A stretch of DNA of 64,000 bases from Candidatus Thorarchaeota archaeon (GCA_019057475.1 DXJO01000038.1:32001-96000); one strand, 5' to 3'. Counted from the stretch's first letter, positions 1,270-37,480 are shown. Notes: generated from the letters alone by a model not told the origin. Numbers and translations are program-made.

Positions 1270-1352
1270 AATAGAACTGAGAGTTCTTCACCTCACAATT
1301 GCTTGGTGTCCTTAGTGACAAGGAAGAAACTCGAAACCCAAAAAACAAGAAA

Positions 1353-1581
1353 GCCGCCCGAGTCTAAGCCCCGACAGGTGTTCGATGATTTCTCGTTCGG
1401 CGCTGCTGTCTTAGTCGCGTCGTTTTACACTCATCGTAAGCGGTTCGTCGCTCAGCTTTGCCTCTCGCCAATCAGCCCTTCATGCTGTCTTAGTCGCTTT
1501 GCCATCTTTCGATTGGGTTTCTGGCTTCGCTCAGCATGACCAGACTCAGCACGTCTGTCGTTAGCGTACTCCTCGGACGGC
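1353..1581 (-). ncRNA. Putative 229-nt structured non-coding RNA of unknown family
   Basis: 10-bp terminal helix GCCGUCCGAG/CUCGGGCGGC; TATA-like TTTATCTTTATTT at 1601-1613 (minus strand); U-rich tract immediately 3' (1337-1352); exact internal 15-nt repeat at 1404-1418 and 1483-1497. Confidence 0.6.
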
Positions 1582-1718
1582 TATCTAACTATTTAGACGC
1601 AAATAAAGATAAACTTTGTGAATGACACTGGAGCAGGATTGCTGAAAGCAATCAGGTTCATCTATGCATTGCTCTGTCCTGCAAATGGCAAGGCAATCAC
1701 GATAAGGAAGAGGGCAGC

Positions 1719-2462
1719 CTATGCTTCGAATAGGCCATTTGCTTTCAGGATCATGGCAAGGTAACGATGAGGTGGAACCTGTACGACACGCCCCAAATCA
1801 ACATTCAAGATGTAGATGGAGTCAAGTGCAGTCTGAGCAAGCAAGTCCATTGCGATTGATGGCGACGAGTAATAGGTATCACAGAGAGCCTTCAGTTGCT
1901 GCAGTTCTTTCTTTTTGCGATCCTCTGGAAAACGGAGAAGGATTTCAGGTACTTGTAGAACATGGTAACCGGGTGTGGCTAGGGCGAATCTTTGGCTATG
2001 ACCACTATACCGGGCTATCTTTGCAGCAATCCGTGCCTGTCTATAGCGTATGGGTGCGAGAGCAGCCTCTGGCGGTACGAATCCGGTTTCCACTTCTACC
2101 ACTAGTGTTTTCCTAGGCCCTGGCGTAGTATTGTCCCTTCTGTATGGCTTCTGGTCGCTACGACTAGGTGAGTCTGTCGAAAATGCTGATTCTTCTGAGC
2201 GAGAGCTCACAGCATATATGTCGGCAACTAGGGCGCCACCATCAAGCGGATGTTCCACAACTACTCGGTACCCATGCTCAATTAGATGCCAGGCACAAAG
2301 AACCTCCATTACACTGTGGTTGATCTTCACGAGGCGTCGCTTGTGAAGGCTCACCAGCCTATTCCGGACTTCAACCAGCTGCTGCATCACTTTTGGATTT
2401 GGCCTAGGCTTGATTTGCATAAGCAGACGGTCCAAATCTCGGGAGAACTTGTCTTTCGCCAC
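1719..2462 (-). CDS. Conserved archaeal hypothetical protein with PD-(D/E)xK nuclease-like motifs
   Basis: GY.V.VEH..LVADIYA...VVEVETG pattern; KINHSVME and ARIAAKIARYS blocks resemble a conserved archaeal family. Confidence 0.55.
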   Translation of the reverse strand: MAKDKFSRDLDRLLMQIKPRPNPKVMQQLVEVRNRLVSLHKRRLVKINHSVMEVLCAWHLIEHGYRVVVEHPLDGGALVADIYAVSSRSEESAFSTDSPSRSDQKPYRRDNTTPGPRKTLVVEVETGFVPPEAALAPIRYRQARIAAKIARYSGHSQRFALATPGYHVLQVPEILLRFPEDRKKKELQQLKALCDTYYSSPSIAMDLLAQTALDSIYILNVDLGRVVQVPPHRYLAMILKANGLFEA

Positions 2463-2570
2463 GATGTCACCAACTCAGTTCTTACTGTGCTGTGGACTCT
2501 CGTGCCTTTTGATATGAAGTCCCTAAGAGCCTACCGCTGTTCTGGTTGGAGTTTCATAGGAAGGAGGGGA

Positions 2571-2843
2571 GGCTTACCCCGAAAGCCCGGAGGAATGCTC
2601 GTCATTCTAAACGGAAATCCTCACGGCCCCAGAGCTTGTCAGGCTCGAAAGGGTCATCCGTGGCTGAGTACTGTGAACAGGCGACTCTCGAGTCGTTTGA
2701 GAGTGCTACCGATCCCGCCATGGCAAAAACCGCGGAAACACCGTCTGCCGCCATCGACGCTCTAAAGGCCTCTGACAGTCATGGCAAAGCAGTGCAGCGG
2801 ACTGAAGCTCAGTCTGGAAAGAGGGATAATGTTCCTGTGAAGT
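2571..2843 (+). repeat. Direct repeat copy 1 of the tnpB 3' region (orphan omega-RNA-like fragment)
   Basis: Aligns ungapped to 15883-16155 with about 19 mismatches in 273 nt (counted by eye). Confidence 0.95.
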
Positions 2844-2885
2844 TAGGGTACTATCCTCTTTGCTGGGAACATTGATGTGTGCACA

Positions 2886-3209
2886 TCAGCTATTTGGACT
2901 CTCCTGAGGGGTAATTCTGTAGTAAAACACATTCTTGCCCAAGGTGAACTTAGCAATCAGTCCCTTGTTTTTGAGTCTAGTTAGGGTTCTTCGTATCTGA
3001 TTTGCCGGCTTCCCGACTAGGTTGGATATTTCACGTATGGTATGAGTCGCATCACAAAGAAGATAGACTATCTTCTGTTCTCCCGTCAAGGCATATCTCT
3101 CAGGCTGTGCAGGTGAAATATGCATCTGCAGTAGTGCTGACAGTAGACCCGATATCCTATCTAATATAACCAGCAGCTTATTCTCAAACTCATTGTTTCT
3201 CGATGTCAA
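2886..3209 (-). CDS. Small winged-helix DNA-binding protein (MarR/ArsR-like)
   Basis: TIREISNLVGKPANQIRRTLTRLKNKGLI HTH followed by a beta-wing (NVFYYRI). Confidence 0.7.
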   Translation of the reverse strand: MTSRNNEFENKLLVILDRISGLLSALLQMHISPAQPERYALTGEQKIVYLLCDATHTIREISNLVGKPANQIRRTLTRLKNKGLIAKFTLGKNVFYYRITPQESPNS

Positions 3210-3437
3210 CTTGCTACTTCTCCATAACTCTTAGATCCGTTGATGGCATCTTGAGTGGAATCTAACTGAAACGCCAAGATATGACACCAATAAGGGATAT
3301 TTATGCTTCCTTTGTTAGTCAGAACTAGGCCAATCGTTGTCTGTGTAATTAAGAAATTACTTGGCAGGCACAAACCAGCCGCCATACGATCATTTCAATT
3401 GACTGATTTACAATGCCTCTTAGAGATATGAACATCA

Positions 3438-4268
3438 TCATTTCTTCTTCTTGACGAGCCGGCCCTTCTCGTCCATTACTCCTTTTATGATTCCTATGAT
3501 TCGAAGCAGCATAATCACAGCTGCGTTTGCATTTTTCCTAATCGAAATCATCTTCTTCTTAGTGACGAAATCTACGACGCTATGCGCTGACTCATTTCCT
3601 TTCCTTCGAAGGCCCTTGATAGAAGCCAGATGGTTTTTCGTGAAACCATACTTCACATAGTCACCAGATATCTGCTCGAAGTTTAGAACTAAGGATTTTA
3701 GGGGGAGAAAACGGTTCGTACCATCATCAAAATACATCTTATGTTGATTCGTCGGTTCATACTTAAAGCGTAGAATATCAATTACTAGATTCTCCACCAG
3801 CTTTCTCAGCATGACACGTGCAGAGGAAAATGCTTCGTACTCAAAGCAGGTGTTAATCTCATCGATTAGCAAACTGTATACCTTGTCAACTCTATACACG
3901 TTTTCAATGTCTATGAAGTCAGGTTGCGAAGGCATCTTCCGGCTAGGTACACTAGTTTCCGCTTTTTCTCCGGGCAAATACATTTGTCCGGGAACTACCA
4001 TTGGGATTTCTTGGGCTAGATCCTTGAACTTCTGTGCAGAACGTTTCCTCATCACGAAGACCATAGTTTCTTTCTTGCATAATGGACATTCGACTCTGCA
4101 AATTCCTTTCTGTATATCCTCACCTGACCGACCTATTTTCATCTGGAATTTGCTGTACTCTTCCGGTTTGAAGTAGAATGCATACCACCCATGCTTGTCA
4201 AAAGCCAGTCGGAGATTCCTACCACAGTCTTCAGTTTGACAGACGATAGGAATGACTACTCCGCTCAT
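3438..4268 (-). CDS. Zn-ribbon + HEPN/DUF4145-like protein (putative RNase toxin)
   Basis: N-terminal CxxxxC...CPLC; C-terminal EINTCF..ARVMLRKLVE and RRKGNESAH (RxxxN/H HEPN-type motif). Confidence 0.6.
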   Translation of the reverse strand: MSGVVIPIVCQTEDCGRNLRLAFDKHGWYAFYFKPEEYSKFQMKIGRSGEDIQKGICRVECPLCKKETMVFVMRKRSAQKFKDLAQEIPMVVPGQMYLPGEKAETSVPSRKMPSQPDFIDIENVYRVDKVYSLLIDEINTCFEYEAFSSARVMLRKLVENLVIDILRFKYEPTNQHKMYFDDGTNRFLPLKSLVLNFEQISGDYVKYGFTKNHLASIKGLRRKGNESAHSVVDFVTKKKMISIRKNANAAVIMLLRIIGIIKGVMDEKGRLVKKKK

Positions 4269-4322
4269 GCAATATCACCACAGACAGACAACATCAGCTC
4301 GAATACAACTGCTCGTGTCCAT

Positions 4323-4755
4323 CTACACTGCGGAGTCCATCTTCTTTTCACACTTAAAAATGACTTCTCCTGCCATTTGAAGTGCCCAACAAATCCTATC
4401 AGGCCTGATCGCGTAGTTGTCACCTTCTTTCTCGAATCCGTCAGCGAGGCCTTCCTGTTTACTTGAAAGATATGTCGCAAGAGAGTCAGGATTAATCATC
4501 AATACATTCTGCAACTCATCTTTCGACATCCCTTGAGGATACTGTAACATCAATGCGCATACAATCTTCTGCTTTGCAGTAGCAGTTCCCTCGGGGAACG
4601 AGATTGCAGTCGCATATTGGTCCGATGCCAACATATGTCGCAACCTTGAGCTTAGTTAATCCAATCTCAATTTCTATCAATGCATCCGACCAATTTTCAA
4701 ATTCGCCGACTTGCAGTTCGTAGTTATTATAGAATGCTGAGAACGTCCGCTTCAT
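4323..4755 (-). pseudogene. Frameshifted member of the winged-helix paralog family
   Basis: ORF 4516-4755 matches the N-terminus of 5808-6302 (NWSDA motif), and ORF 4323-4643 in another frame matches its C-terminal wHTH; frame switch near 4620-4640. Confidence 0.7.
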
Positions 4756-5007
4756 TTTGACAGTACCTCCTACATCAGTGCACTACCCCATTTCCTCCAT
4801 TTTAATCTGGCGTATCGTGATGACTACATCATTAACTTGGGAATCCTTCGAGCAAGAAACATCATAGTGAATTGTGAAACGGTGGAGTCGCTTAACATAA
4901 TTACTACTCATGCAAAGATTAGTTGTTATAAACCCGGTCCACTAATGATGGGCGATAATCAAATATCGGTCTTCTTCATTTAATTAGCCTGACTCTGATA
5001 ATATAAC

Positions 5008-5562
5008 TTGGGTTCTCCTGCGAAGGTGATTAAGCGTATGGAAGAGATTGAAACTAAGGGGGTTATGCTGGAAAGAACTGTACGAAACACGATCGTGCGC
5101 ATCACTGCAAAGAACGGCGAATCTCTTGATGAAGCATACAATAGGCTCGCCGAAATATGCCAGAGTATTGAGGATACTGAAGCAGCCAAAGAGCGCGAGA
5201 AGTGGACTGAGGATATGCACCCAGAGGTGGAAGAAGCCACATCAAAAGTAGAGGCTCTCCTTGGTTTGGATGCCAATGAGAGAAGAGGAGTAAGCCTAAC
5301 AGATGAGTATCACATGGTTATACTGTCACTGCTAATGCATTTTGACGAGTGCAAGGGTTCCGTTTCCATCGCCAAGGAATGGAATATTAACAGCGGCAGA
5401 GTTTCACGAGTCTTCACAGCGTCGCGCAAGAAGCATGAGAAGTACAAGGGGCATTTCGAGAAATGCAAGATGGGAGGTTACCGTTTCACTAGAGAAGGCC
5501 TAAATCACGCATTGGAATATGGGGTGTCCGCGATATTGGGCGAAGAGAGTGATGTCGGCTAG
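5008..5562 (+). CDS. wHTH paralog family protein
   Basis: LDEAYNRLAEI N-module; HMVILSLL..SIAKEWNINSGRVSRVF..GGYRFTREGL wHTH. Confidence 0.7.
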   Translation: MGSPAKVIKRMEEIETKGVMLERTVRNTIVRITAKNGESLDEAYNRLAEICQSIEDTEAAKEREKWTEDMHPEVEEATSKVEALLGLDANERRGVSLTDEYHMVILSLLMHFDECKGSVSIAKEWNINSGRVSRVFTASRKKHEKYKGHFEKCKMGGYRFTREGLNHALEYGVSAILGEESDVG

Positions 5563-5807
5563 CAAGCTCTAGTTTCGTGAGTAGGTCATTTCCCGATTAG
5601 ATGTCGGAAGCAAATAGTTCGCGTTTCTTCATACCTAAATTGGAGTGTTAAGCATTCAATCTGGTTTCAGAGTCATGCTGCCTAGGATCCCCCATTGACA
5701 TCTCCTCTCATTCGATACCAACAAAGCTAATGCTGATGATTTGATGAAAAAGATTTAGTATAGGTTCGGTACTCTCAGCCAACGCGCAAGCAAAGGACCA
5801 TGGTAGT

Positions 5808-6302
5808 ATGACAAAGGAAGAGGAATCTATAGATGACAGTGGGGACTGGGTAGAGCTGCAGATCAAGCATGGCAATACCATACTGTCAGTGGGTGGACAC
5901 AACTGGTCTGACGCCATAGCAAAGGCAGCTCTTGGAAAGATGAAATGCAGAATTGCTGCAGTTGCAGGTTACGCAACAGAGTACAGTTCGGAGCTGAAAC
6001 AGTGGGTCATTGTGTTTGGAGAACCCATAGGCCAAATCAAGAGTCGAATTGCACTAGCGTTGCTGTTAGCTTTTCCAGAAAGGCTCTCAAGGGAGGAGTT
6101 GGTGAAGATGGTCGACATCAAGCCAAATCGGATTAGGGAGTATCTTACCAACACGAAAAAAGGCGTCAAACCCCACGTAGACGAAAACAAGAAGTCCGGC
6201 ATTATTCTGAATACCAAGGGCTACTCATGGGCGGTTGGGATTCTGGAATCAATTGAAGAAGCTAGATCCCACGAATCGAAAGGTGATGATATTGAGCAGT
6301 GA
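5808..6302 (+). CDS. wHTH paralog family protein
   Basis: SRIALALLLAFPERLSREELVKMVDIKPNRIREYL..IILNTKGYSW. Confidence 0.7.
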   Translation: MTKEEESIDDSGDWVELQIKHGNTILSVGGHNWSDAIAKAALGKMKCRIAAVAGYATEYSSELKQWVIVFGEPIGQIKSRIALALLLAFPERLSREELVKMVDIKPNRIREYLTNTKKGVKPHVDENKKSGIILNTKGYSWAVGILESIEEARSHESKGDDIEQ

Positions 6303-6765
6303 TCAGACAGATTTGAAGATTCGATTGAGTAGAACGATGAATAACATCCAGATTGAAGTCTGGCTAAGCAGCGAAGATGAGTTCAGAGAAGGCTATGCGC
6401 TTCTCAGACGACTCTGCGAAAGGGCAGAATTTGAGGAACTCAGACTAGACCTGGGTCAATTTAGAGTCAGAGATGATGAAGGACACAGAATAGCTGAGCA
6501 AGTTACTGAGGGTACGCACAGAGTAGCTCTATCACTCCTTGATAGTTGGCCAGATTCCAAGAGAGTCACCGACATTCAAGTTGAAACCGGACTATCACAG
6601 GGACACGTTTCGAATATACTCGAGGGCCGTCGAGGCGACGTGGGACACTGGTTCGAGAAGGAGAGAGATCTCTGGAAGCTATCACCCATTGGAGTGAGAG
6701 CCATTGTCGAAGAGGTCGTTCCAGCCCTGTTTGAGCAACAACGTTCTGGAGGGGGAACTCAATGA
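6235..6765 (+). CDS. wHTH paralog family protein (true start may be slightly downstream)
   Basis: HRVALSLLDSWP..DIQVETGLSQGHVSNIL..WKLSPIGV..VVP. Confidence 0.75.
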   Translation: MGFWNQLKKLDPTNRKVMILSSDQTDLKIRLSRTMNNIQIEVWLSSEDEFREGYALLRRLCERAEFEELRLDLGQFRVRDDEGHRIAEQVTEGTHRVALSLLDSWPDSKRVTDIQVETGLSQGHVSNILEGRRGDVGHWFEKERDLWKLSPIGVRAIVEEVVPALFEQQRSGGGTQ

Positions 6766-7286
6766 ACGCCAACGAAGAACAGGAGTTGACAGTCGAGATT
6801 GAGAAGTCTAGGAGCGGCACGAAGATTCGAGTTGTGGGAATATCCGCAAGTACGGACGAAGCGCAATTCGATCAAGCATACAAACTAGCGGATGAACTTT
6901 ATAGGAGAATCGAAACACTCGACCTTGAAATTGAATCGGAAAACAAAATCCAACAGGCCAAGAATCAAGTTTCTCATCTTTGGGTTCAAGAGGAAAACAA
7001 ATGGAAACTCTCCGCTTCTGTTACGGAGGCATCACACCGAATCGCACTGTCACTCCTTAGAAGCTATCCGAAGTGCATAACTCAAGCAGATGTAATCAGA
7101 GAAACAAACATAGCTCAGAAGACTGTCAGCAATCATCTAGGAGGACGAAAAAAGGAGGTTCGCATATATTTCTCGAAATGTGATGGCGGTTATCAACTAA
7201 GCCAAGATGGACTCAATTGGACCATCACGAAGGTCATTCCCAAGGCCATTGGCCAAGAGATGCCGAATGAAAGGAAAGAGGAATAG
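6762..7286 (+). CDS. wHTH paralog family protein
   Basis: FDQAYKLADELY N-module; HRIALSLLRSYP..VIRETNIAQKTVSNHL..GYQLSQDGLNW..VIP; ATGA overlap with the previous gene. Confidence 0.75.
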   Translation: MNANEEQELTVEIEKSRSGTKIRVVGISASTDEAQFDQAYKLADELYRRIETLDLEIESENKIQQAKNQVSHLWVQEENKWKLSASVTEASHRIALSLLRSYPKCITQADVIRETNIAQKTVSNHLGGRKKEVRIYFSKCDGGYQLSQDGLNWTITKVIPKAIGQEMPNERKEE

Positions 7287-7289
7287 TTA

Positions 7290-8264
7290 ATGACTGATTC
7301 CGACAAACAAACCTTCTTGATCAGGAAGAAATCAGCAGGACTGGAAATCGAAACACGAGTTGATGAGAAGAATCTCGATAATGCATACCTAAAATTGGAG
7401 GAATTATGGGCACATTTCAGTCAATTGGATGAAGAGTTGGAACCCAAACGAAAAATTCGCGATCTAGTGAAAGAATGTCAGAAGTACTGGGTTCGGAAAG
7501 ATGGGAAACGGTACCTAGCGAAGGACGTTGCTTCTGTATCTCATCGAGTCGGACTATCTGTGCTCGATGGGGGCAACAAAGGAAAGAGCCTGAAGGCCAT
7601 TGCCGACGAAACCGGGTTGTCTTCACCCCTTGCGCGGTATCACCTAACTGACGCCAAGGGAGCATCAGGGTGGTGCTTACAAGATGAAAAAAGACATTGG
7701 AAACTAACACCGGAGGGATTGGAGCACGTTACAAACATAGTAATTCCGTATTTACAGGGCCGTCACGGAAATGAACTCCACATGATTCTGAAATGGATGA
7801 ATAACAGAATATACAAGGGTCAGTTTGATAGCTGGATACTCGGCAAGGTCCAAGGAAAGGTGGACAAAACCAACTTCTTGGAATATGCCGTTGGATTGCT
7901 CCTATCAGCTTTAGGTTTCCTAGTATACCAAGTGGGCATGTATAACGATAGATTCGATATCGTTGCCTGTCCGCCAGATGGGTCTATCATGCTGGTATGT
8001 GACTGTACAACAGGTTCAGTCAGAAAGAAGTCATCGGGTCTCAGCATAGTCGTGGAAGAACTCAGGACCGAATTTCCAGAGATGCACGTAGAGGGTGTTG
8101 TTTTCACAACGGAAAGAATTAGTAAGACTGATCGAAAGGATTTGCTTAGCGACAAGATTGGGATTGTTGATGCAACTCAGATCAAGGAACTCCTCAAGCT
8201 AGCAAAATCCGATCGAAATCCCGAGCTGTTGTTTGATGTCATGAGGAAGAAGGAAACGCGATAG
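7290..8264 (+). CDS. wHTH paralog fused to a C-terminal Mrr-like restriction endonuclease domain
   Basis: LDNAYLKLEELW N-module and wHTH, then FLEYAVGLLLSALGF..RFDIVA..LVCDCT..GVVFT..IGIVD (PD-(D/E)xK-like fold, with a non-canonical third residue). Confidence 0.65.
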   Translation: MTDSDKQTFLIRKKSAGLEIETRVDEKNLDNAYLKLEELWAHFSQLDEELEPKRKIRDLVKECQKYWVRKDGKRYLAKDVASVSHRVGLSVLDGGNKGKSLKAIADETGLSSPLARYHLTDAKGASGWCLQDEKRHWKLTPEGLEHVTNIVIPYLQGRHGNELHMILKWMNNRIYKGQFDSWILGKVQGKVDKTNFLEYAVGLLLSALGFLVYQVGMYNDRFDIVACPPDGSIMLVCDCTTGSVRKKSSGLSIVVEELRTEFPEMHVEGVVFTTERISKTDRKDLLSDKIGIVDATQIKELLKLAKSDRNPELLFDVMRKKETR

Positions 8265-8319
8265 CTATTCTATGCCCAAACGCTCCATAAACAGCTTTGG
8301 TTACTCACTCTTGCATTGT

Positions 8320-9204
8320 TCACTCACTTGGGCGCAGGACAGAACTCATGTATTCCCTTACTCTCTCCGTTTCGAAGAAGTAGTACAATCCATCATCTGA
8401 TAAACGGAAACCTCTCTTGCATTTTGAGAAGTATTGAGAGTGGTCATGCTGTATCCCCGTTATGATTCGGGAAATGGATGACTTAACCAGACCAGTTTCC
8501 AAGGCGATTTCTTGCAGAGTCCTGCAATCGGGGTACGCTCTAAGGAGTGAAACCATAATCTTGTAAGGGGGCTTTGACTCTTCGGACTTTCTGCCAAGAG
8601 CTTCAAGCGAGCCATCATTTACATAGATAGACCAGTGACCGTCTTCCCTGCGCCAGAGATTAGTAGTCCCCTGTTTTGCACGCTTAATCATTTCATCGAA
8701 CTCTTCAGTTACATAGTCAATGGATTGAACCGGATGTTTCTCTGGAAGGGCATTGAGGACACGCAGAATCTGGTCCTGAACCTTCCGTGGGCTCTTCACA
8801 GATGTGGAATTCCCAAAAATTCTCTTGTATTCGATGACGTAGTAGCTTTTAGTGTCGAAAGGAAGTTCTCTTATCTTTTGAGTGAGTAGAATAAATGGCT
8901 TGCTCAAACCCCATGCAAGACCTAACTCTAGGAAGACATTCGGATTCGAGCCTGACAGGTCAGCAATAATCGCCCTAGATTCTTGTATGTTGGCACATAT
9001 CTTGCACCAAATCTCGGGTTTGCTCAAGTCGGAATCGGCTCTATGAACAGTCCAACCTGGCAAAGATTTCAGAACATCGTGAAATAGGCTCTGGGGCGCC
9101 TCCTTCTCTCGAAAGGGCATAAGCACAAACAGTTTGCGTGGATCATACTTCACGTTGACACCACACCGCTCGTAGTTCTTCGGGCATATGATTGGTATAC
9201 TCAT
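8320..9204 (-). CDS. Nucleoside 2-deoxyribosyltransferase/TIR-like domain fused to the family wHTH
   Basis: LFVLMPF..RAD..IQESRAIIADLSGSNPNVFLELGLAWGLSKPFILL; C-terminal SLLRAYP..EIALETGLVKSSISRI..GFRLSDDGL. Confidence 0.75.
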   Translation of the reverse strand: MSIPIICPKNYERCGVNVKYDPRKLFVLMPFREKEAPQSLFHDVLKSLPGWTVHRADSDLSKPEIWCKICANIQESRAIIADLSGSNPNVFLELGLAWGLSKPFILLTQKIRELPFDTKSYYVIEYKRIFGNSTSVKSPRKVQDQILRVLNALPEKHPVQSIDYVTEEFDEMIKRAKQGTTNLWRREDGHWSIYVNDGSLEALGRKSEESKPPYKIMVSLLRAYPDCRTLQEIALETGLVKSSISRIITGIQHDHSQYFSKCKRGFRLSDDGLYYFFETERVREYMSSVLRPSE

Positions 9205-9294
9205 AACTCTACACTTTCTCGGAAGAATCAGCTGCAGCTGCCCTGCTTCCCGTGCCCGATTCCCATGAATCGCATGTTAATTTGCCACTCAAGT

Positions 9295-12200
9295 TCAATG
9301 AGTGACACTTCCTAGAAGATGCTCAATCTTGGAGATGAGTCCATCATAGTTTTCTATCCTCTCCTTTGCTTCCTCATCACTTCCGAAGTACGACTCCACA
9401 ATCTCTTGAATCAGGCTTTCAGCATGGTCAAGTGTTCTAGCAACCCCGCTCTGAGGAGGTGTTGTCGCAAGGATCCAGTTGTACACCTGTTCCCCTGTCT
9501 TGTTGGATCTAGCACTAAGCTGAATTTCTGACTTGAACTTGAGCACAGTACAGACCAACTTCTCTTCGTCCATCTCAAGATAGCTGCCAGCCCGGATTGC
9601 CCTCAGGCCTAGTTCTCTCACGATTCGTCGACTCTCTCTGAACACCATGCCCTCTCTAGTCGTGGGGTCTGGAACGAACTCAAACGCGAACTCGCACCAT
9701 GCATTTCCGAGAAATGCACCTCCTGCCAACATCATTGCAGATATCTCTGAGTCGTCAAGTCCAGTCTTGGTCAGTCCAGATAGGCTGGTATCCTTGTCCC
9801 CATCCGAGAGCTCTACGCGCCAGCATGCACCATGACACTCCATTTCTCCGCTGGCTATGGGACATAGCTCCTCGTCGTGAGTCACAACCAGCGTTTGATG
9901 AGCGACCTCTCGGCTCGTGAGGTCCTCTGCGGTTGATGGCAGGGTCGTGCGAAAGCGGACGTACGGAGTCCTCTGCTCTACGTAGGGCCTCAGAATCTCC
10001 AGTGCATCATAATCAATGTCATCATAGGGGTTCCATGTCAGATAGGTTTCTGTGTCTTTCAGACTCTGCAGTGGAAGACCATCGACTATTGGACGTCGAA
10101 GCAGCGCGAGGAGCTCAGACGTGTGCTGGATGGACCAGCTCTCGATCAATTCGTTTCCATCAGCTCTATTGAACTCAATCGTGTAGTGGTCGTCATCCAC
10201 GTCCAGTGTGCATTTCGTCGAAACACAAAGGCTGAGTGACTCCGATATATCCTCAAGTACTCCTTGCACTCTCTTCCCTAGTGCCCGCGGAAATCGAAAC
10301 CATTCCGGCAGTAGTGGGAAGTCCTGTTCAGGCATTGTTGTGATCTGAAGTCCGCGGATGCCAGCAAGCGTTTCTCCTCTCCTCCTTATCGTGGTGAGCT
10401 TGCCCAGAGGCGTCCAATTCTCTTCATCGCGAAACCAGAAGTAATCTCCCCCGGCGGACCTATGCACGATTACGTCGTACGTGGCAGTTGCACCTACATG
10501 CTTAGACAAGCACAACGCAATCTCATCCTGACGGATTGCAGTCCAGCTTACTGTTTGCTTGGGCACAAATGGTTCGCATCCAATCCATACCCCAATCAGC
10601 ATTTTCCGACGGTCGTAGGGGTTCTCTATCGCCAAGCAATACTCCGGAGTTTCGTGCTCTTCTGACAGCACCAGAATCTGACCGTAGCTCACAGTACTCA
10701 GTTCAGGAACGTTCAGTGAGGTCATGGCTTTAGCCCGTTTCGCAAGTCCTGACCACACAGCTCTCAGATCGAGTCTAGGTGTGACCTCTTCTGACTCAGA
10801 GTTCATAAGGACGAATCCCATCTGCATGATTTGCCAAGACTTGAGAATCCTCCATAGCTCCGATAAATGCCTGTCAGCCAAAGTTGGGAACTCCCTAGTG
10901 AGCCCCAAGAGCAACAGGAAGAGGTAGTTGCCAAGAGAAACGGACAGGTACGGTCGCACACTGAGAAGATCCAGCAGCATCTCCCTGTCCTGTGCTCTCA
11001 GTCCCTCTACCAACCGGCTATCTCGAACCCACTGGAGCGTCGCCCATACTGGCTCAGAAACCGGACTCGTCTGCAAAAATCTCACGATGTCATCAAGCGC
11101 CTCGATGTGACCCTGTTTTCCATCGCCAATCGAAATCAATTCATCGAGCTCATCGAGGAACTGCGACCAGCTCGACCCGTCCTTCTCATGTCCCACTTGC
11201 CGAAGGATCCTGACGGCCTGACGAAGCCGCCTGAGTTCAAGCCGCGTGGCTCTCTCGATATCATGGCCAAAGCGCAGAGTGGCCTCTATGGGAGGTCTGT
11301 AGATACTCGCGCCCGTGCACTCTCGATTACTGTCCTTCCTGTAGGCACGTTGATGTGTGATGCTGTTCCTTGGCAGCAACGCAACACTCTCAACGAATGC
11401 TCTCCCGTGTCCCACTGTCTGCATTCTTGTCCTGTATTTCAGAAAAGGAGCTCCAGAAGGCCTGCTCTTCGAGCCATATTCAGACAGTGGCACGACATGA
11501 ATTTGCCGTCCCCCAGTATCATCCGCTTTCTGTACAATGCTCTCTGACAGATACTGCTTCAACTGAGGCACGAGCTCGATGGAGTCCCGAAAGAAATCAT
11601 CTTGCATCTCTGAATTGTGCATGACATCAGCAGACCGAATCACCGTTCGTCCTCTTTCTCCTTCTTGAGCGGATGAAACTGATGCTCGCCTTGGCTCATT
11701 CCAGAACCTTGGAGACCAGTTGTGAAGCGGTAGTACCTCTACCATGTTGAAAGAGATACCATCAATGTCCTGTCTTATGATGACTCTGAGGTCATCGAAC
11801 GCAGATGTCAACTGGCCTGATGCATACGGTCGCACGGGGAGATTCCATACGATCTCTGTGACGAAGCGGTTGAGTTCGGAACCTTGGAAGAACGGCTCCA
11901 TTGTCCTTCTCTGATAGGATGCTGAAGTACCTTCTGAGTTTCTAGGCCTGTCAAACCAGACTACCGTACAACCTGCCTCATTCAACTCAGCCGCGATTAT
12001 GCGTCGCAGCTCATAGAGTGCCGGCCGTAGTCGTTTTGGTGTGCAGTCATCCAGTACATCCCAGCCACTGACCACAACAACCCTACCATCTAGAGCATCC
12101 CATTCCTCTCCCACGAGCTTTGCTATCGACAGGTCCCCGATTCCTCTGAAGAGGAAGTCCTGTATAGCTGACGAGGCATCGCTGAACATGACTGCGCGGA

Positions 12201-14235
12201 AGAACTCGCGCATGTGGTCACTGCCTTGATCTGACCTGAGTCTAGTCCTAGCCAAAGACTCGGCTCCAAAGTCACCTGCCAAGTCCAACCACAGCATTTC
12301 AGAGTGATCATTCTCCTGTTGGAGGCCGTGGATGAGCTCAAGTCCGTGCCAGTACTTGGCTATCCAAGCAGCAGAGGGCCCTGATCTAGACGCGGAGTTC
12401 ACACTCAGATAGAGAATGAAGCGGCCTCTCGCCTTACCATTCTCCTCTAGTGGGCTGCGTTGCTCAACACCCCACAAAGGCCAGCCCTTTTTCCCAATCT
12501 GTTTCAACTGGTCAGCAGCTATGCCATGCACGATGATAGCAAGTTTCAGCCAATCCCGGGTTCCGTCATTCAAGACAACTCCCACTGGTCTGCTGAGATG
12601 CTCTTTGAGAAGGACTGAGGCGTTCTCACACAGAGCTCGCGTGAGTCGCCATAGTCTGGGACGTACCACAGAGGAGTCCTGCGAAGTGTCAAGGACCACA
12701 GTACCGGTCAGAGGCCGCACCACTGAACGGTCCTCTGTGATTCTCACATACTCCGTAGCAAGACCTTCGGCATAGGCCTCGAGCTGTTTCATGCCGTACC
12801 CCGTTGGCGTTCCGGCAACAGACGCATTCCACTCGGCGTTCGTGAGCCCGCGCTTTCTGAGAACAAACTTGGGAATAACCTTCTGTCCGTGTTTCTTGGA
12901 ATCCTTCTTCTCAGCTTTAATCTCCCAATTGAAAGCAGTCTTGCTCTTGATGTCAAAGACAGCCACGGGTATCCATACGGTCAGTTTGCCCGGCACTCTC
13001 GGGTTCTGAATCACATGACGTCTGAACATCACGAGATCCGCCCGCCCCTTCCCTAGGGAGGTTTCCACAGGGATTTCTGCTGCAAGGAGCCACTGGTCAC
13101 CCTCCTCCACCCAACGGTCACCGTTGAAGACCACCGACTCCAAGTCGTATGGCTGGACGAGTCCGTTAGTCATCAACCTGTGCCATCTGATGCCGTGCCA
13201 TCTCGCCCTCCGCATAACTTCCTTTTGTAGCCACTCACCGTCCTCATCCCGAAGGATGCCACGTTCGCATAGGTCCTTGAGGAAGTCCGCCCAGGCCTGA
13301 CGAATCTCACTCTCGGAGGCTTCCTCTTCCGGATACCTCAACTGCGTGACCTGGTCCAGGAAGAATGAAAGGTCCCACCTAGCCCTCGACTCCTCAATGG
13401 ACTGTGTCAGTGATGGCGCCCGCCCATAGTGTGTCCCGTAAAACGCCTCGATCTCCTGGACTATCTCTCGGAGAATCCAGTTCGCGTCAAGCTGTTCACT
13501 ATCCCTCCGCCCACTTCTTCTCGAACGCTTGAACCCCCGCTTCCCGCTCTCCTTCGAGGTGTAGAGATACTCGAGGAACGGTGACAGCCGCCATATCAGC
13601 AGGCCAACATACCTGCGCGCGTTGTTCATCGGCACGTCGTTGATGAAGCACTTACGACACAGTTCGAAGATGTGGGCTCTCAGCATGTCCCCGAAGTCCA
13701 GCTCCGCAAGGACAGTGTGAGCCACCTCAACCCATGGATAGTCGCTCCCGCCTTCGTACCCTGCAATCCACCTCTTGCCGCGTCGACCTGCTGTCTTTGG
13801 CTCTGGAAACGGAAACCTTGTCACGACCCAGTTCCTCAGTTGTGCGCCAGCCATGTTCAGTAGTCTGTTGAGCGGCCCAATCCTCCCCTTCCTCTCGTTC
13901 TGTATCCGCTTGTACTCCCTGTTGCCGTAGCGCGCGGTGGTTTCCCAGATCATCTTGTTGAAGTTGCGACGCATGTGTTTCTCGACGTTTGTAATGTGAG
14001 AAAAGTCGGGTTTGCCACCGCGTCTGCTCGCGCGCCACTTGCTCAGTGCTTCGGTCCACTGCCTTTGAGTGCTGGCATAGACATCCTCGATGCTCTTGAT
14101 CGTGCGCTCGCGGAAGAGGTCACGCAGTGCCGAAAGACCGTTGAGGTACGCGCGAGCTATGGCCTGCGCTGGGTCGTGGGGGTATGGCCTCTGTTCACTC
14201 TCCTTGAGGTTATCCATCGCGGGCACGCGTATCAC
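9295..14235 (-). CDS. 1646-aa giant hypothetical protein with a PD-(D/E)xK (RecB-like) nuclease motif
   Basis: Long uninterrupted ORF; EIPV..GRADLV..VFDIKSK..QLEAYA motif. Confidence 0.7.
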   Translation of the reverse strand: MIRVPAMDNLKESEQRPYPHDPAQAIARAYLNGLSALRDLFRERTIKSIEDVYASTQRQWTEALSKWRASRRGGKPDFSHITNVEKHMRRNFNKMIWETTARYGNREYKRIQNERKGRIGPLNRLLNMAGAQLRNWVVTRFPFPEPKTAGRRGKRWIAGYEGGSDYPWVEVAHTVLAELDFGDMLRAHIFELCRKCFINDVPMNNARRYVGLLIWRLSPFLEYLYTSKESGKRGFKRSRRSGRRDSEQLDANWILREIVQEIEAFYGTHYGRAPSLTQSIEESRARWDLSFFLDQVTQLRYPEEEASESEIRQAWADFLKDLCERGILRDEDGEWLQKEVMRRARWHGIRWHRLMTNGLVQPYDLESVVFNGDRWVEEGDQWLLAAEIPVETSLGKGRADLVMFRRHVIQNPRVPGKLTVWIPVAVFDIKSKTAFNWEIKAEKKDSKKHGQKVIPKFVLRKRGLTNAEWNASVAGTPTGYGMKQLEAYAEGLATEYVRITEDRSVVRPLTGTVVLDTSQDSSVVRPRLWRLTRALCENASVLLKEHLSRPVGVVLNDGTRDWLKLAIIVHGIAADQLKQIGKKGWPLWGVEQRSPLEENGKARGRFILYLSVNSASRSGPSAAWIAKYWHGLELIHGLQQENDHSEMLWLDLAGDFGAESLARTRLRSDQGSDHMREFFRAVMFSDASSAIQDFLFRGIGDLSIAKLVGEEWDALDGRVVVVSGWDVLDDCTPKRLRPALYELRRIIAAELNEAGCTVVWFDRPRNSEGTSASYQRRTMEPFFQGSELNRFVTEIVWNLPVRPYASGQLTSAFDDLRVIIRQDIDGISFNMVEVLPLHNWSPRFWNEPRRASVSSAQEGERGRTVIRSADVMHNSEMQDDFFRDSIELVPQLKQYLSESIVQKADDTGGRQIHVVPLSEYGSKSRPSGAPFLKYRTRMQTVGHGRAFVESVALLPRNSITHQRAYRKDSNRECTGASIYRPPIEATLRFGHDIERATRLELRRLRQAVRILRQVGHEKDGSSWSQFLDELDELISIGDGKQGHIEALDDIVRFLQTSPVSEPVWATLQWVRDSRLVEGLRAQDREMLLDLLSVRPYLSVSLGNYLFLLLLGLTREFPTLADRHLSELWRILKSWQIMQMGFVLMNSESEEVTPRLDLRAVWSGLAKRAKAMTSLNVPELSTVSYGQILVLSEEHETPEYCLAIENPYDRRKMLIGVWIGCEPFVPKQTVSWTAIRQDEIALCLSKHVGATATYDVIVHRSAGGDYFWFRDEENWTPLGKLTTIRRRGETLAGIRGLQITTMPEQDFPLLPEWFRFPRALGKRVQGVLEDISESLSLCVSTKCTLDVDDDHYTIEFNRADGNELIESWSIQHTSELLALLRRPIVDGLPLQSLKDTETYLTWNPYDDIDYDALEILRPYVEQRTPYVRFRTTLPSTAEDLTSREVAHQTLVVTHDEELCPIASGEMECHGACWRVELSDGDKDTSLSGLTKTGLDDSEISAMMLAGGAFLGNAWCEFAFEFVPDPTTREGMVFRESRRIVRELGLRAIRAGSYLEMDEEKLVCTVLKFKSEIQLSARSNKTGEQVYNWILATTPPQSGVARTLDHAESLIQEIVESYFGSDEEAKERIENYDGLISKIEHLLGSVTH

Positions 14236-14483
14236 TCGGGCATTTTGTAGGGTTATAGCCTAATAAAAGCGCGGTCTTTTCTCATTCTTTCCTCTTACTC
14301 TGGCTTGAAATCTTCGAAGTTAGAACCCGAACAGGTTCCTTTATTCAAATAATCTTCATAGATTTATATGATGTCAGTAGTAAGAAAGTGTGGAGGTTAT
14401 CACCCGACTTCCGTAGAAAGATGTTGAGTGAAAACCCTCTGACCAGAAACAGGTCGGAGATTTATATGGTACGGTGAACTTGA

Positions 14484-16280
14484 GTGGGTCTCTCCAAGGG
14501 AATAGTAACAAGTGTCAAGGTCCCGATTCGTTGGGACTCTATGACCAAACGGCAGCAAACTCGCCTTTCCCGAATCACAAGCCGGGATACTAGGGTGATT
14601 CGTGCCTTCCTTGGAGTGATTGCACGTCACGAGAAAGAACTTCTTGTCGGTAAGAAAAAGAAGAAGATCAGCGGTGCAAAGCTTGAGAAGCTGACCCTGA
14701 CTGCTACAAGATTCAAAGACGCATCTAAGAACCGAACCACAGTTCCCCACGACTTCAAGAAACGATTCCCGAACATATCGCTGAATGAGCTTCAGGAGTG
14801 CAGACAGGTGGCCGCTGCAATGTGGCAGAGCTATCTCGAACTTGGGGGCAAGCCTCCTCTCCATACTCATGGTTACAGGCCGCGCAAGCTGCCTCGGTAC
14901 ATCTATACTCGAAGGTTCAAGATAGTCTATACTCCTGAGAAAGAGATCAAGCACTGGCTCAGGCTGATGGACTCCCTCGACTCTGAAAAGACAGAGGGAC
15001 GATATCATGACTATCTGATGGTTCCTCTCAATCCCTCTTCCTATCATCTGAATAGGATCAACGAGGGCAAGGTGACGTCACTTCGGCTTCTGAAAGATAC
15101 CCGGAAGAAGTGGTGGGTGGTGTTCGCTGTACGCGTGGATGTCCCCGCGGTTGACAACAGCTCGAAGCCACCAGCAGTGACAGGCATAGACCTAGGGATC
15201 AACAAGGCAGTCTGTTCGGTAGTCTTGACTCAGACTCGTGTCAGGTTCGTGGGATACTTCACGCAGCCTGAGAAGGTCAAGCGAATCAAGCGGTACGATG
15301 AGATGGTCGACTCTCTTCAGAGAGAGATGAACACCAGACTCAACAACGGGCAGTCAGCAGATGGAGTCATCCAAAGACTTCGCGAGCTGAGCGGGCGACG
15401 TAACCGAATCAGTATCGACCACGACCGGGTGCTTGTCAGGCGGCTCACTGACCACATCTTGAAGTTGTCAAAGAAGTACGACCTGTACGTGGCGATTGGC
15501 AAACTGACCGGGATTCGGAAGAGTGCCAACAGGGACAGCAAGAAACCGAAGGCATTCCGGGCGATGGTCGGACGGTGGTCTTTTGCAAGAGTCACCAATG
15601 CGTTGAGGCAGAAGCTGTCCGAGAGCGGCTGGAAAGTCAGTGGTCGTGATTCCCGATTCATTCCGGTCCGCGAGTACTGGACTAGCCGAGTCTGTTCCAA
15701 GTGTGGGCACATTGGAATACGCCCGAAGCAGTCTGTCTTCATCTGCCATACCTGCGGTCACAAGACCAATGCCGACAAGAACGGCGCCATCAATATCGCA
15801 AGGCGCCTCATTATGCTCATTCCTTCACTGAAGGATGAGAAAAGACTAGGGAGTTGGCTTCATCCTCACGAAAGAGAGGGGTGGCTTACCCCGAAAGCCC
15901 GGAGGAACGCTCGCCGTTCTAAAGGGAAGTCCTCACGGCCCCAGAGCTTGTCAGGCTCGAAAGGGTCGTCCGTGGCTGAGTACAATGAGCAAGCGACTCT
16001 CGAGTCGTTTGTGAGTGCTACCGATCCCGCCATGGTAAAAACCGCGAAAAAACCGTCTGCCGCCATCGACGCTCTAAAGGCCTCTGACAGTCATGGCAAA
16101 GCAGTGCAGCGGACTGAAGCTCAGTCTGGAAAGAGGAACGATGTTCCCTTGAAGTCTAGCGAAGCCCGTGTCATAGCGTCGGCGTGGAACCCGATGTATG
16201 CTGGCGACAGTCGTCACGGGAAGGGTGGAACGCGTGGGTTGAAGGTTACCGAGGGTGTTCACTCACTTTCTGAAACTTGA
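14484..16280 (+). CDS. tnpB: TnpB/Cas12-family RNA-guided endonuclease with rearranged RuvC-II and a long C-terminal extension
   Basis: RuvC-I GIDLG; VAIGKL (G at the usual E); downstream REYWTSRVC; zinc finger CSKC..CHTC; RuvC-III NADKNGAINI. Confidence 0.9.
   Translation: MGLSKGIVTSVKVPIRWDSMTKRQQTRLSRITSRDTRVIRAFLGVIARHEKELLVGKKKKKISGAKLEKLTLTATRFKDASKNRTTVPHDFKKRFPNISLNELQECRQVAAAMWQSYLELGGKPPLHTHGYRPRKLPRYIYTRRFKIVYTPEKEIKHWLRLMDSLDSEKTEGRYHDYLMVPLNPSSYHLNRINEGKVTSLRLLKDTRKKWWVVFAVRVDVPAVDNSSKPPAVTGIDLGINKAVCSVVLTQTRVRFVGYFTQPEKVKRIKRYDEMVDSLQREMNTRLNNGQSADGVIQRLRELSGRRNRISIDHDRVLVRRLTDHILKLSKKYDLYVAIGKLTGIRKSANRDSKKPKAFRAMVGRWSFARVTNALRQKLSESGWKVSGRDSRFIPVREYWTSRVCSKCGHIGIRPKQSVFICHTCGHKTNADKNGAINIARRLIMLIPSLKDEKRLGSWLHPHEREGWLTPKARRNARRSKGKSSRPQSLSGSKGSSVAEYNEQATLESFVSATDPAMVKTAKKPSAAIDALKASDSHGKAVQRTEAQSGKRNDVPLKSSEARVIASAWNPMYAGDSRHGKGGTRGLKVTEGVHSLSET
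15883..16155 (+). repeat. Direct repeat copy 2, inside the tnpB 3' end (probable omega-RNA scaffold region)
   Basis: Matches 2571-2843; hairpins with a compensatory change between the copies. Confidence 0.9.
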
Positions 16281-16598
16281 AACAGGCCGGTGCATGCAGC
16301 CGATCGTATCTCCCGTGAGGAATCAAAGTGAAGCAGTTAGTGATTCTCACAAGTACTCGCTATGTAGGTAGCCCAAAGTCATCGCCTTTCCTCCTCTCGG
16401 AGTGCTCTGCTTCGGTACCACTCCTAGCGGCTGAAATGAAGGTTTCTCCCTTAATGTGTCCACGGTAACAGTTCACTTTCCGAGTGGTCCAATCATTAGA
16501 ATCAGTTTACCTTTAACAGCTACCGAATTCACATCTGAAGAATTATATGTCATGCTGAATCGACTCCACCAGCGCTCTGCGCCAGCAAGTGATTTAGA

Positions 16599-17009
16599 AT
16601 GCCCCCTAAGGATATGAACGTCATAATTTTTGGATGTATGCAGTGCTGTTACGCTGCAGCGGACCTAGCGGGCACGATGAAGTTACAGTACGACGTGACG
16701 AGCCGGCTAATCCGCATGCCGTGCACCGCGCGCCTGGACATCAACTTCATCCTGAAGGCGTTGCAGGAGGGTGCGGACGGCGTGCTGATTGTTGGCTGTC
16801 ATCCGGGAGACTGCGCGTTCAAGACCGGCAACCTAGGGGCAGAGCGACGCGTCAGATTCGCAAGGAAGCTGATTGGCCAACTGGGCCTGAACGAGAATCG
16901 TGTGAAGATGGTGTTCGTGAGCGCTGCAGAGGGCGACCTGTTCGTCAAGCACGTCAACGACTTCGCAGATGAGATCAGGGCGATAGGGCCAAACCCGATA
17001 AGGCTCTAG
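16599..17009 (+). CDS. mvhD: Methyl-viologen-reducing hydrogenase delta subunit (MvhD/FlpD)
   Basis: CMQCCYAAADLAG, RMPCTAR, GADGVLIVGCHPGDC, VSAAEG motifs. Confidence 0.92.
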   Translation: MPPKDMNVIIFGCMQCCYAAADLAGTMKLQYDVTSRLIRMPCTARLDINFILKALQEGADGVLIVGCHPGDCAFKTGNLGAERRVRFARKLIGQLGLNENRVKMVFVSAAEGDLFVKHVNDFADEIRAIGPNPIRL

Positions 17010-17052
17010 ACGGCAAGCGTTAAACAGAAGCGAAGCCTATGCACCTCGTTGA

Positions 17053-17463
17053 CTAATATCTTCTGACATCAATTCCGACTATTTTCTCATAGTGACGGTC
17101 TTGAGTGATGATTGTGGAGCATCCATTTGTGAAGGCAATTGCGGCAGTCAGACAGTCATTGACACCTATTGGCTTGCCAGATCTCTCCAATTCTGTGTAG
17201 ATTCTGCTGGCACGGTCTGCAGCCTCAACGTCAAGATTCCAGATAGTGATTCTGGAGAGTAGCCTTCTAACAGCCTGTTCTTCGGAAGGGATTCGTCCTC
17301 TGACATCACATCCTCTGAATAGCTCGAATGCATTCACACTTGTACTGGCAAAATGGAAGCCCTCCGACTTGAGCCTGAGATACTGTTCTTGAGCCTTGTC
17401 GACCCCTCTCAGGAAATCGATAAGGAACGCAGTATCAAGGCATGCAAATGTCAATGTGACCAA
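17053..17463 (-). CDS. vapC: VapC-type PIN domain toxin
   Basis: CLDTAFLID..SVNAFEL..G.PIGVNDCLTAAIA..IITQDRHY. Confidence 0.9.
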   Translation of the reverse strand: MVTLTFACLDTAFLIDFLRGVDKAQEQYLRLKSEGFHFASTSVNAFELFRGCDVRGRIPSEEQAVRRLLSRITIWNLDVEAADRASRIYTELERSGKPIGVNDCLTAAIAFTNGCSTIITQDRHYEKIVGIDVRRY

Positions 17464-17663
17464 GCACCCCAGATCTCATCGAGGTCCTCGAATAGGCTTT
17501 CTCTCTCTTCATCGCTCATTGATAATATCCCAAAGAGGTCCGAGATATCGTCAACAGGACCTAGGAGCCGCAAAACGACATCACTGAAGGACTCTCTCTC
17601 TCTTTTCACTCTGCGAAGACGGTCGTAAGCCTTGTCGCTTAATGAGATATTCTTGTAACCCAT
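17451..17663 (-). CDS. vapB: Archaeal VapB-type antitoxin
   Basis: MGYKNISLSDKAYDRLRRVKRERESFSDVVLRLL; overlaps the vapC start. Confidence 0.85.
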   Translation of the reverse strand: MGYKNISLSDKAYDRLRRVKRERESFSDVVLRLLGPVDDISDLFGILSMSDEERESLFEDLDEIWGAWSH

Positions 17664-17772
17664 GGCAATCATCTGTGTATTCATACACAGAAACACAGAT
17701 AAATGCCGCGACTTGCACCCTAGTGCGGAGGTTGTTCCGCTATTCTGGATGCGCATCACTTTTCGCAATACA

Positions 17773-18139
17773 ATGTATGTACGCTGCAGCGGACCTAGCG
17801 GGCACGATGAAGTTACAGTACGATGTCACGTGTCGGCTAATCCGTATGCCCTGCACCGCGCGCCTGGACATCAACTTTATTCTGAAGGCCTTGCAGGAGG
17901 GGGCGGACGGCGTGCTGATTGTCGGTTGTCATCCCGGAGACTGCGCGTACAAGACGGGGAACCTGGGGGCAGAGCGACGCGTCAGATTCGCAAGGAAGCT
18001 GATTGGCCAACTGGGCCTGAACGAGGGCCGAGTGAAGATGGTGTTCGTGAGTGCGGCGGAGGGCGACCTGTTCGCGAGGGAGGTCAACGATTTCGCTGAC
18101 GAGATCAGGGCGATAGGACCTAACCCTATTAGGCTCTAA
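17773..18139 (+). pseudogene. mvhD: Second, 5'-truncated mvhD copy lacking the QCC codons
   Basis: Near-identical protein to 16599-17009; ATGTATG|TACGCT junction versus ATGTATG-CAGTGCTGT-TACGCT in copy 1; unrelated sequence upstream. Confidence 0.75.
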
Positions 18140-18266
18140 TGATCGTAGTCTGGCCTTAGCTTACTGACTCATTTTTTTGTTTGCAACGTCTGACTGGAAA
18201 CCTGATTCTCCCTAGGATGGGGCGCGCGATTCTAGTCGAAACCCACAAGAGGATTATCCGTCTAGA

Positions 18267-19085: not shown

Positions 19086-19120
19086 AGGCACCTTGAAAAT
19101 CCACTCTGTAAGGAAACGAC

Positions 19121-19179
19121 AGGTCAATGACTTCACTGACGAGATCAGGGCGATAGGGCCGAACCCGATAAGACTCTGA
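19121..19179 (+). repeat. Third copy of the mvhD 3' end (VNDFTDEIRAIGPNPIRL-stop)
   Basis: Near-identical to 16953-17009 and to the end of copy 2. Confidence 0.9.
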
Positions 19180-19484
19180 ACTCTAGAAGTCAGCAATTGA
19201 TTCTTCGACATGCAGTTAGGGTTGAGATTCGAGAAATGTGGGCGGAGCGAAACTGCTCCACTCCACAGCTCTCTTTCAGTAATCCAATTCCGAACGCAGA
19301 TATCGTGGAACAGCTCAGCTGGGTTCGGACCACCTCTCCAATGAATACAGAGCTAACAGCTCACTCAGAATATAGTTGGAGTAGACTTGTCGGATACCCC
19401 CGTCAATGTATTCCGATAAGCTGCAATCCTTATCAGATGCCCTCGTAGTTTGTATACTAGCAGGTCTGCATAAGGGGCGCTCAC

Positions 19485-36066: not shown

Positions 36067-36300
36067 TGAGTCCTCCCTGGTATATGTCAATTAGCACTGG
36101 CACCGCATCAAGTAGAATGCACCATAGTCCACCCGCCAGTTGAACATTCCTGTGTCGTCAATTTTCCGGTGTGCAATTCACCATCAGCCATTTTTAGTCT
36201 CTTTTGTTTCATGGAGTATGCACCTATTTGGTGGCTTGTTACAAACTGAGCGAGATCCAGAATGCAATCCACAGTATCATCATCGGCGGGTTTGGAGAAA

Positions 36301-37424: not shown

Positions 37425-37480
37425 GTGACTTCTGAGAGCATTTATGAGCGGTCTGGAATATGGTATAGCGGGTATGAACT

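Follow-up and report, generated by a model that had tools for sequence, protein, structure and literature searches.

The stretch analysed here, 64,000 nucleotides of a Candidatus Thorarchaeota archaeon (GCA_019057475.1 DXJO01000038.1:32001-96000; hereafter the window), contains an island next to mvhD, the gene for an FlpD/VhuD-like iron-sulfur subunit (full-length resident copy 16599..17009, + strand). Judged by its genes, the island is a Thorarchaeota aCas1-TnpB locus; all named homologues of its TnpB and of its giant partner protein come from Thorarchaeota. The tnpB gene (14484..16280, +; Pfam Cas12f1-like_TNB, E 4.5e-13) encodes 598 aa with a rearranged RuvC domain and a low-conservation tail that overlaps an omega-RNA scaffold. 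The gene for the 1646-aa partner lies at 9295..14235 (-), and cargo fills 2844..9294. A 13-nt guide (16291..16303, +) follows the scaffold and is antisense to mvhD codons 11-15. Part of the scaffold recurs at the far end of the island (left copy, 2564..2843, +). Comparison between genomes makes it fairly probable that the locus has undergone serial RNA-guided takeover of mvhD at a hotspot, with the left copy a relic of the previous occupant.

The duplicated segment is an ungapped direct repeat of 280 bp (2564-2843 and 15876-16155) with 93% identity (blastn E 1e-116, far above chance). The initial annotation had reported such a repeat with about 19 differences and a left start at 2571. We counted exactly 19 differences within 2571-2843; the duplication itself starts at 2564, and the two copies differ at 20 of 280 sites. 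The compensatory pair that had been pointed out is present (T2596/A2604 on the left, C15908/G15916 on the right), and the hairpin base holding it covaries across the family (alignment columns 74:87, GC 20, AU 17). A second hairpin taken to be conserved, CACGG..CCGUG, was paired wrongly: the CCGUG partner sits ~70 nt further downstream, in helix 8 (columns 143-149 with 220-226). The right copy differs from that of strain G005 at only 15 positions, fewer than its 20 differences from the left copy, so the left copy is not a fresh local duplication; it is about as far from the right copy as the alleles of other strains are. A tree from the 280-bp segment did not resolve. Nor is the left copy an assembly artefact, since the left junction and fragment start recur in an independent genome, GCA_030603095.1. 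There the junction is identical, only 23 bp of the fragment remain, and other cargo follows, including restriction-modification genes; the giant protein of that genome is 91% identical to the one here.

We built a scaffold consensus from an alignment of 43 tnpB tails (model length 453). It has 86 pairs, 59 with changes on both sides, and pairing holds in 95.8% of alignment cells, versus 82.7% in shuffled controls and ~40% with partners slid. This bears out the proposal that the repeat falls within an omega-RNA scaffold whose pairs covary and which extends over the 3' end of tnpB; the right copy sits within the 598-aa open reading frame (ORF), past the zinc finger. Full-length orphan copies begin at the equivalent of 15835 and stop at a terminal 8-nt repeat (16283-16290, +), which places the full scaffold at 15835..16290 (+, ~455 nt). 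It encloses the right copy and a nearly family-invariant motif, GTTCACTCA (16257-16265, +), and guides come after the terminal repeat. Rfam gave zero matches in window positions 1-20000.

Of the scaffold and tnpB tail the left copy preserves 61%, an internal fragment spanning model positions 40-324 of 453. Missing are 41 nt at the 5' end and 135 nt at the 3' end of the scaffold, 31 of the 86 consensus pairs, and any guide. Helix 1, helices 16-19 and the 3' strand of the strongly covarying long-range helix 11 are gone, as are GTTCACTCA and the terminal repeat, and no end motif was found downstream. On this sequence comparison it is part of an allele that once functioned and is now eroding, and very probably a non-functional relic. 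An initial proposal was that it is transcribed as a stand-alone scaffold that retargets TnpB in trans. Its retained pairs are intact in 53 of 55 cases, with one private compensatory change, and full-length orphan scaffolds exist elsewhere in the genome, which speaks for this proposal; the missing helices and motifs, the unavailability of the segment with which the tnpB leader guide pairs (see below), and the failure of sister genomes to keep the left copy render it highly improbable. A sigma-70 promoter scan near the left copy was at chance level, with a model ill-suited to archaea.

The genome contains 21 scaffold matches, only four of them beside a full TnpB. Orphan full-length scaffolds of another subtype, lacking tnpB, are found in G000 on contigs C21 (three), C34 and C18:123298, with halves at the ends of C37 and C2; different sequence follows each, and several break the assembly. 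Going by their sequences, it is these orphans, rather than the left copy, that might act as stand-alone or non-autonomous mobile guide RNAs.

The guide after the right scaffold matches the mvhD allele exactly at seven other loci. The resident mvhD, ~300 nt downstream of the guide, has three wobble-position mismatches in its target site (16630-16646, -; mismatches at 16637, 16634 and 16631). For 30 guides at 26 loci, matches to a genome's own mvhD allele were compared with matches to other genomes' alleles using 20,000 permutations. None of the 30 matched its own allele exactly and two had at most one mismatch, against 11.2 expected (0/20,000 permutations), while 25 of the 30 matched another genome's allele exactly. 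The longest contiguous match to the own allele was at most 8 nt, versus 13–16 nt to the best foreign allele in 25 cases, and the mismatches fall at wobble positions 6, 9 and 12. The shortage of near-perfect own matches was also significant when alleles were drawn from guide-less genomes (P 0.0006). Kinship among genomes weakens these statistics somewhat, yet guides and alleles differ within genera. At the sequence level this is what homing would produce: a mismatched resident allele and a matched rival allele. A guide of insertion-sequence type would equal the insertion-site flank; here it is instead an antisense piece of mvhD 330 nt away, and several loci have two guides plus the repeat. In nine genomes (L166, L171, L174, L178, L185, L187, L253, L258 and L265) only the scaffold 3' end is found upstream of mvhD, with no tnpB ORF; the guide, where present, still mismatches the resident allele. 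The literature searched, in which subscription papers were little covered, held no report of mvhD or 16S targets or of this guide position.

Related loci lie beside the 16S rRNA gene and have one to three guides against it. The resident 16S gene contains a ~30-nt hairpin insert at 10 of 13 guide-targeted sites. In a search of neighbouring targets over all loci, matches of at least 11 of 13 positions were found for 20% of guides versus 5.5% of shuffled guides, and five were to tRNA genes. This general enrichment is only moderate, so neighbour targeting is shown for the mvhD and 16S loci and not for the whole family. Short guide arrays and a 16S gene adjoining tnpB and the giant gene are found at G000 C9:14000-23100, L055, L116, L118, L123 and L056. 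The ~30-nt inserts occur at up to four sites in 16S, one within the anti-Shine-Dalgarno region, and at L116 displaced 16S 3' ends lie downstream. Guides at L128, L240, L244, L217 and G000 C54:73334-75550 match neighbouring tRNA genes.

Footprints of earlier events were found on both sides of the island. Downstream, an islet of vapC with an upstream antitoxin-like ORF (17053..17768, -) separates the full mvhD from a displaced copy (17768..18139, +) that begins at codon 14, 5 nt inside the guide target site. A third mvhD relic, a 58-bp 3' piece, lies behind a methyltransferase gene (19120..19177, +). Among ten displaced downstream mvhD copies, nine begin 4–6 nt from the target-adjacent motif (TAM). 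On the other side, co-oriented scaffold relics lie past the giant gene in six of the seven mvhD loci with enough sequence, and their ends all differ (model positions 40-324, a 23-bp stub, 188-266, 196-443, 252-329 and 330-429). At the far end in G014 lie an old scaffold 3' half, an old guide, a promoter and mvhD codons 1-11. After these come 11 kb of cargo plus giant gene, then a tnpB that belongs to another subclade, a guide different from the old one, and a complete mvhD. At L053 (G011:C17:5765-8027) an inverted tnpB 3' part and a giant-gene fragment immediately precede mvhD, and a second relic of the scaffold lies 5 kb off.

Two other explanations of the repeat can be held against these footprints. 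The left copy could be a chance local duplication or a scattered scaffold remnant, with no tie to mvhD targeting, and the island an ordinary variable hotspot. The genome-wide scatter of scaffold fragments, an observation that the initial annotation itself had named as telling against its proposals, would fit, as would the free exchange of cargo at this site among strains and the relics of G007 and G051, which are 95–98% identical to their own tnpB. We consider this rather unlikely, given that far-end co-oriented relics recur from locus to locus, that in G014 the relic comes with an old guide and with an mvhD stub whose break lies at the target, and that the left copy falls in the mvhD-linked scaffold subtype (93%), not the multi-copy orphan subtype.

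The second explanation, also raised initially, has the two copies bound an excisable element: by recombining, they would free a 13.3-kb circle that carries the cargo, the giant gene and the greater part of tnpB. Repeats of 280 bp at 93% identity could allow occasional homologous recombination, and the segment between the copies does vary among strains. However, because relic end-points differ in every genome they are not recombination sites, and the sister genome keeps a mere 23 bp; the junction of the cargo-less strain G005 differs, lying at the tnpB promoter; and the circle would be without the scaffold 3' end and guide. The fused product of such recombination was found in none of the relatives searched, and homologues of the cargo occur at the same site without the repeat in G010, G020 and G022, a second observation named beforehand as adverse. 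The repeat does mark an edge of a mobile, cargo-carrying island; that it forms the ends of an excisable unit is distinctly unlikely. Direct-repeat att sites are likewise not apparent, as end-points vary over six genomes and the fused repeat is absent from the searched ones, and a casposon is not indicated either, with no inverted repeat bracketing the island and no polymerase match among the scanned ORFs. Nor does the island look like an IS200/IS605 or IS607 element: no Y1 or serine TnpA was found among its ORFs, nor any Y1 TnpA genome-wide; two resolvase-family genes on other contigs could act in trans.

TnpB of this family, present in 55 of the family's 86 genomes, has Gly in place of the RuvC-II Glu and an alternative Glu preceding the zinc finger; this pattern occurs in 48 of 48 TnpBs, and the RuvC residues are invariant. 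A dead TldR-like TnpB, considered because of the RuvC-II glycine, was ruled out by the invariant alternative glutamate. The tnpB leader contains a mini-guide (14423..14468, +). It combines a segment complementary to the 3' end of the scaffold with the 8-nt repeat (14450-14457) and with 11 nt of guide whose sequence is that of a site in the tnpB promoter (14356..14370, +). That site has the TAM TCAT (14356-14359) and an 11-nt protospacer that includes a TATA-like box. Throughout the family, leader guides match their own promoter, mostly over 12–15 nt, behind TAAT or TCAT (71/75). The leader guide probably represses the tnpB promoter. Calculated energies of the leader duplex, -27.7 kcal/mol with the scaffold end and -28.5 kcal/mol with the left copy, did not discriminate between the two. 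A 7-mer that includes the TAM is common to the left flank just before the left junction (2552-2558) and the tnpB promoter (14355-14361), either by chance or as a trace of an old promoter.

In strain G005 the left flank joins directly to the tnpB leader, with the junction 16–18 nt from the promoter TAM. A clean empty site was ruled out there, the tnpB promoter being gone though the leader guide still spells it; this missing promoter and the position of the junction point to what is probably a later deletion.

Another possibility is that the guides are too short to cut or direct insertion, TnpB merely binding and silencing foreign mvhD and its own promoter while relics arise by ordinary recombination. 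Promoter self matches of 12–15 nt do persist at most loci, so such lengths are tolerated, and the mvhD guides match foreign alleles over no more than 13–16 nt. But the breakpoints of displaced mvhD copies lie 4–6 nt from the TAM, and in G014 the stub stops after codon 11, which means that DNA was broken and joined at the target; the invariant RuvC residues, and the G005 deletion that stops 16–18 nt from the promoter TAM, also speak against mere binding. We regard silencing without breakage as unlikely.

The initial annotation had noted that no transposase or integrase is visible, but the 1646-aa ORF opens with a Cas1-like domain. The annotation thus missed this partner, along with the real guide and the mvhD target; it was right about the scaffold segment and the edge of a mobile island, whereas both functions that it suggested for the repeat are unlikely. 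Predicted structures and profile comparison divide the giant protein into a Cas1-like helical domain (aa 40-230; Z 9.2–10.2 to four Cas1 entries), a Cas4-like PD-(D/E)XK nuclease (aa 268-575; Z 8.7) and a RecA-like fold (aa 602-838; Z 12) without the Walker A lysine. No clear fold match was found for the C-terminal half (best Z 6.4). A profile of 127 giant sequences matched one of 30 Cas1s at E 0.0012, with Glu, Asn and Asp motifs in register; an earlier profile–profile (HH) comparison, of 30 giant N-termini against 11 Cas1s, fell short of significance (E 0.25). Glu85, His173, Asp180 and Asp183 are conserved in at least 120 of 127 giant homologues, and the PD-(D/E)XK residues Glu387, Asp400 and Lys430 do not vary. 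For the giant protein, searches of Pfam, PADLOC and ESM Atlas returned nothing, an Atlas fold search reaching RecA-like clusters only. At 66 of 93 loci, tnpB and the giant gene stand side by side in divergent orientation. Elsewhere in G000, a giant-gene C-terminal fragment (71%) lies next to a homologue of the C-terminal domain of the 324-aa cargo ORF described below (C51:92906-93734), and two more giant genes lie near more distant TnpB-like matches (C53:2067-6794 and C54:166693-171516).

Serial takeover of mvhD, the reading that we favour, could proceed as follows. An aCas1-TnpB element would occupy the hotspot repeatedly. Its TnpB would load the 455-nt scaffold with a 13–16-nt guide to codons 11-15 of essential mvhD in the spelling of other strains, the pattern seen in the guide comparison. 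Where element-bearing DNA met a sensitive allele, the guide would mark the site and the donor would be joined, on one side by homology and on the other by a non-homologous joint at the target. The newcomer would bring a differently spelled mvhD, so that the host would keep the gene and be immune. A donor with cargo, giant gene, tnpB, guide and the mvhD 5' part would push the old tnpB, guide and mvhD 5' stub to the far island end, there to decay; the left copy would be such a relic. A donor with the mvhD 3' part and cargo would push the old 3' part downstream, as the copies at 17768 and 19120 may have been.

The Cas4-like and Cas1-like domains of the giant partner probably make the joint, although our leaning in their favour over plain TnpB cutting with host repair is slight. 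A partner-made joint is favoured because the 12–15-nt promoter self match is tolerated and the joint is near the TAM, TnpB cutting because of the intact RuvC, the giant-less loci and the breaks 16–18 nt from a TAM. More tentatively, the system might perform RNA-guided integration by TnpB plus a Cas1-Cas4-RecA-like fusion, without Tn7 or CRISPR parts: a short guide would lead the Cas1-like enzyme to an essential gene whose allele is non-self, kilobases would be joined 4–6 nt from the TAM, the recoded gene would be swapped in, and nested relics would form the insertion record. It belongs to this idea, and is just as tentative, that a 13–16-nt guide is too short for routine cutting.

Several observations weigh against takeover as outlined. 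Compared with draws from guide-less genomes, the mean mismatch count of guides to own alleles was not raised (P 0.16); significance is confined to the shortage of near-perfect matches. One 16S guide retains a 12-nt match to its own gene. The giant gene is absent at 27 of 93 tnpB loci. Its likeness to Cas1 is modest, with the helical fold's Z below the tool's caution line of 13 and an HH probability of 20%; His173 is off the Cas1 histidine in the alignment, and the Cas1 N-terminal beta domain is absent. The G045 mvhD locus has the giant gene and shows no relic, and local duplication or conversion would fit the G007 and G051 relics too. The order of events is drawn from metagenome assemblies of different species, in which related genomes are not independent samples.

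The pairing of aCas1 with TnpB has already been published, with guide position, targets and mode of movement left open. Altae-Tran et al. 2023 (PMC10691335) described Asgard aCas1-associated TnpB (Cas1H-Asgard-1/-2) in loci 'often flanked with repeats', proposed aCas1 as the transposase, and placed a possible guide in a variable stretch upstream of GTTCACTCA, with no target named. The locus here is alike in having an Asgard TnpB beside a divergent Cas1-like protein, with GTTCACTCA downstream of tnpB (PMC10691335). In contrast to that proposal, the stretch upstream of GTTCACTCA is the scaffold's last arm, complementary to the leader, and the guide lies 25 nt further, after the 8-nt repeat, matching rival alleles of the adjacent essential gene; the flanking 'repeats' at this locus would be relics of earlier occupants. 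RuvC-rearranged TnpB2 proteins have Gly at RuvC-II and a downstream alternative Glu, a pattern shown to be active in TvTnpB (Jiang et al. 2023, PMC10530073), and TnpB here shares that arrangement (PMC10530073). It differs in having the alternative Glu 58 residues away, not about 45, in a genome with no Y1 TnpA, and in its ~455-nt scaffold, whose guide is a carried spacer and not the insertion flank.

CRISPR-associated transposons with homing spacers (Tn7-like, Cas12k) combine cargo and a DNA-joining enzyme with a TnpB-family protein whose short guide is directed at a conserved gene of the host. The island has a guided TnpB-family protein, a conserved-gene target, and an adjacent DNA-joining enzyme (here a candidate) and cargo as well. 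Unlike those transposons, it has no TnsABC/TniQ that we could see and RuvC appears intact; its joints lie inside the protospacer and the gene, so a recoded copy must replace the gene. In T4-like phages, homing relies on a nuclease encoded next to a conserved gene, whose rival allele it targets; sequence changes or an ORF-less intron protect the resident one. Both systems would share the targeting of a neighbour gene's rival allele and the protection of the resident allele; they differ in that recognition here goes through a retargetable RNA guide, of which a locus may carry several in tandem, in that the host is an archaeal cell, and in that one joint is often non-homologous and leaves nested relics. 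Free-standing homing endonucleases and intronless or collaborative homing in T4-like phages are treated in a review (PMC2988022), and mobE in a separate paper (PMC2790892).

What is new here is an explanation of the flanking repeat, the 26-locus permutation test and a two-sided joint map. Scaffold limits, guide, self-avoidance, joint positions, nested relics and domain folds can be read directly at the level of sequence, and the locus yields predictions of scaffold ends, guide, a TAM ending in AT (or AY), sensitive and resistant alleles, and joint positions. If takeover occurs as proposed, TnpB would be a retargetable homing device against essential genes (mvhD, 16S rRNA, tRNAs), driving allele turnover and the spread of rRNA mini-introns in the lineage closest to eukaryotes. 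Should the Cas1-like partner make the joint, the two genes would amount to a programmable integrase with no relation to known CRISPR transposons. Though a fossil, the duplicated segment would record the order of occupation.

ORF and domain scans of the cargo (44.7% GC versus 48.3% for the genome) revealed seven ORFs with a common paralogous HTH-like (helix-turn-helix) domain, including the 324-aa ORF at 7290-8264 and a 294-aa ORF (8320-9204) that also has a nucleoside-deoxyribosyltransferase-like domain resembling a TIR-system effector (PADLOC effector E 1e-10). The cargo also encodes a 276-aa ORF (family unassigned) and a 107-aa ArsR-like HTH ORF.

Left of the island, inspection by eye shows a PD-(D/E)XK-like motif in a 247-aa ORF (1719-2462, -) that matched no family. 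It is patchy, present in 25 of 86 genomes and often at other places there, so the variable region reaches left of 2564. Between it and a glycosyltransferase gene, positions 1330-1583 are 69–78% conserved across several genera and contain no ORF of 80 aa. Further along the window, at 36295-39160, a 21-nt motif occurs four times at spacings of 645–1112 nt.

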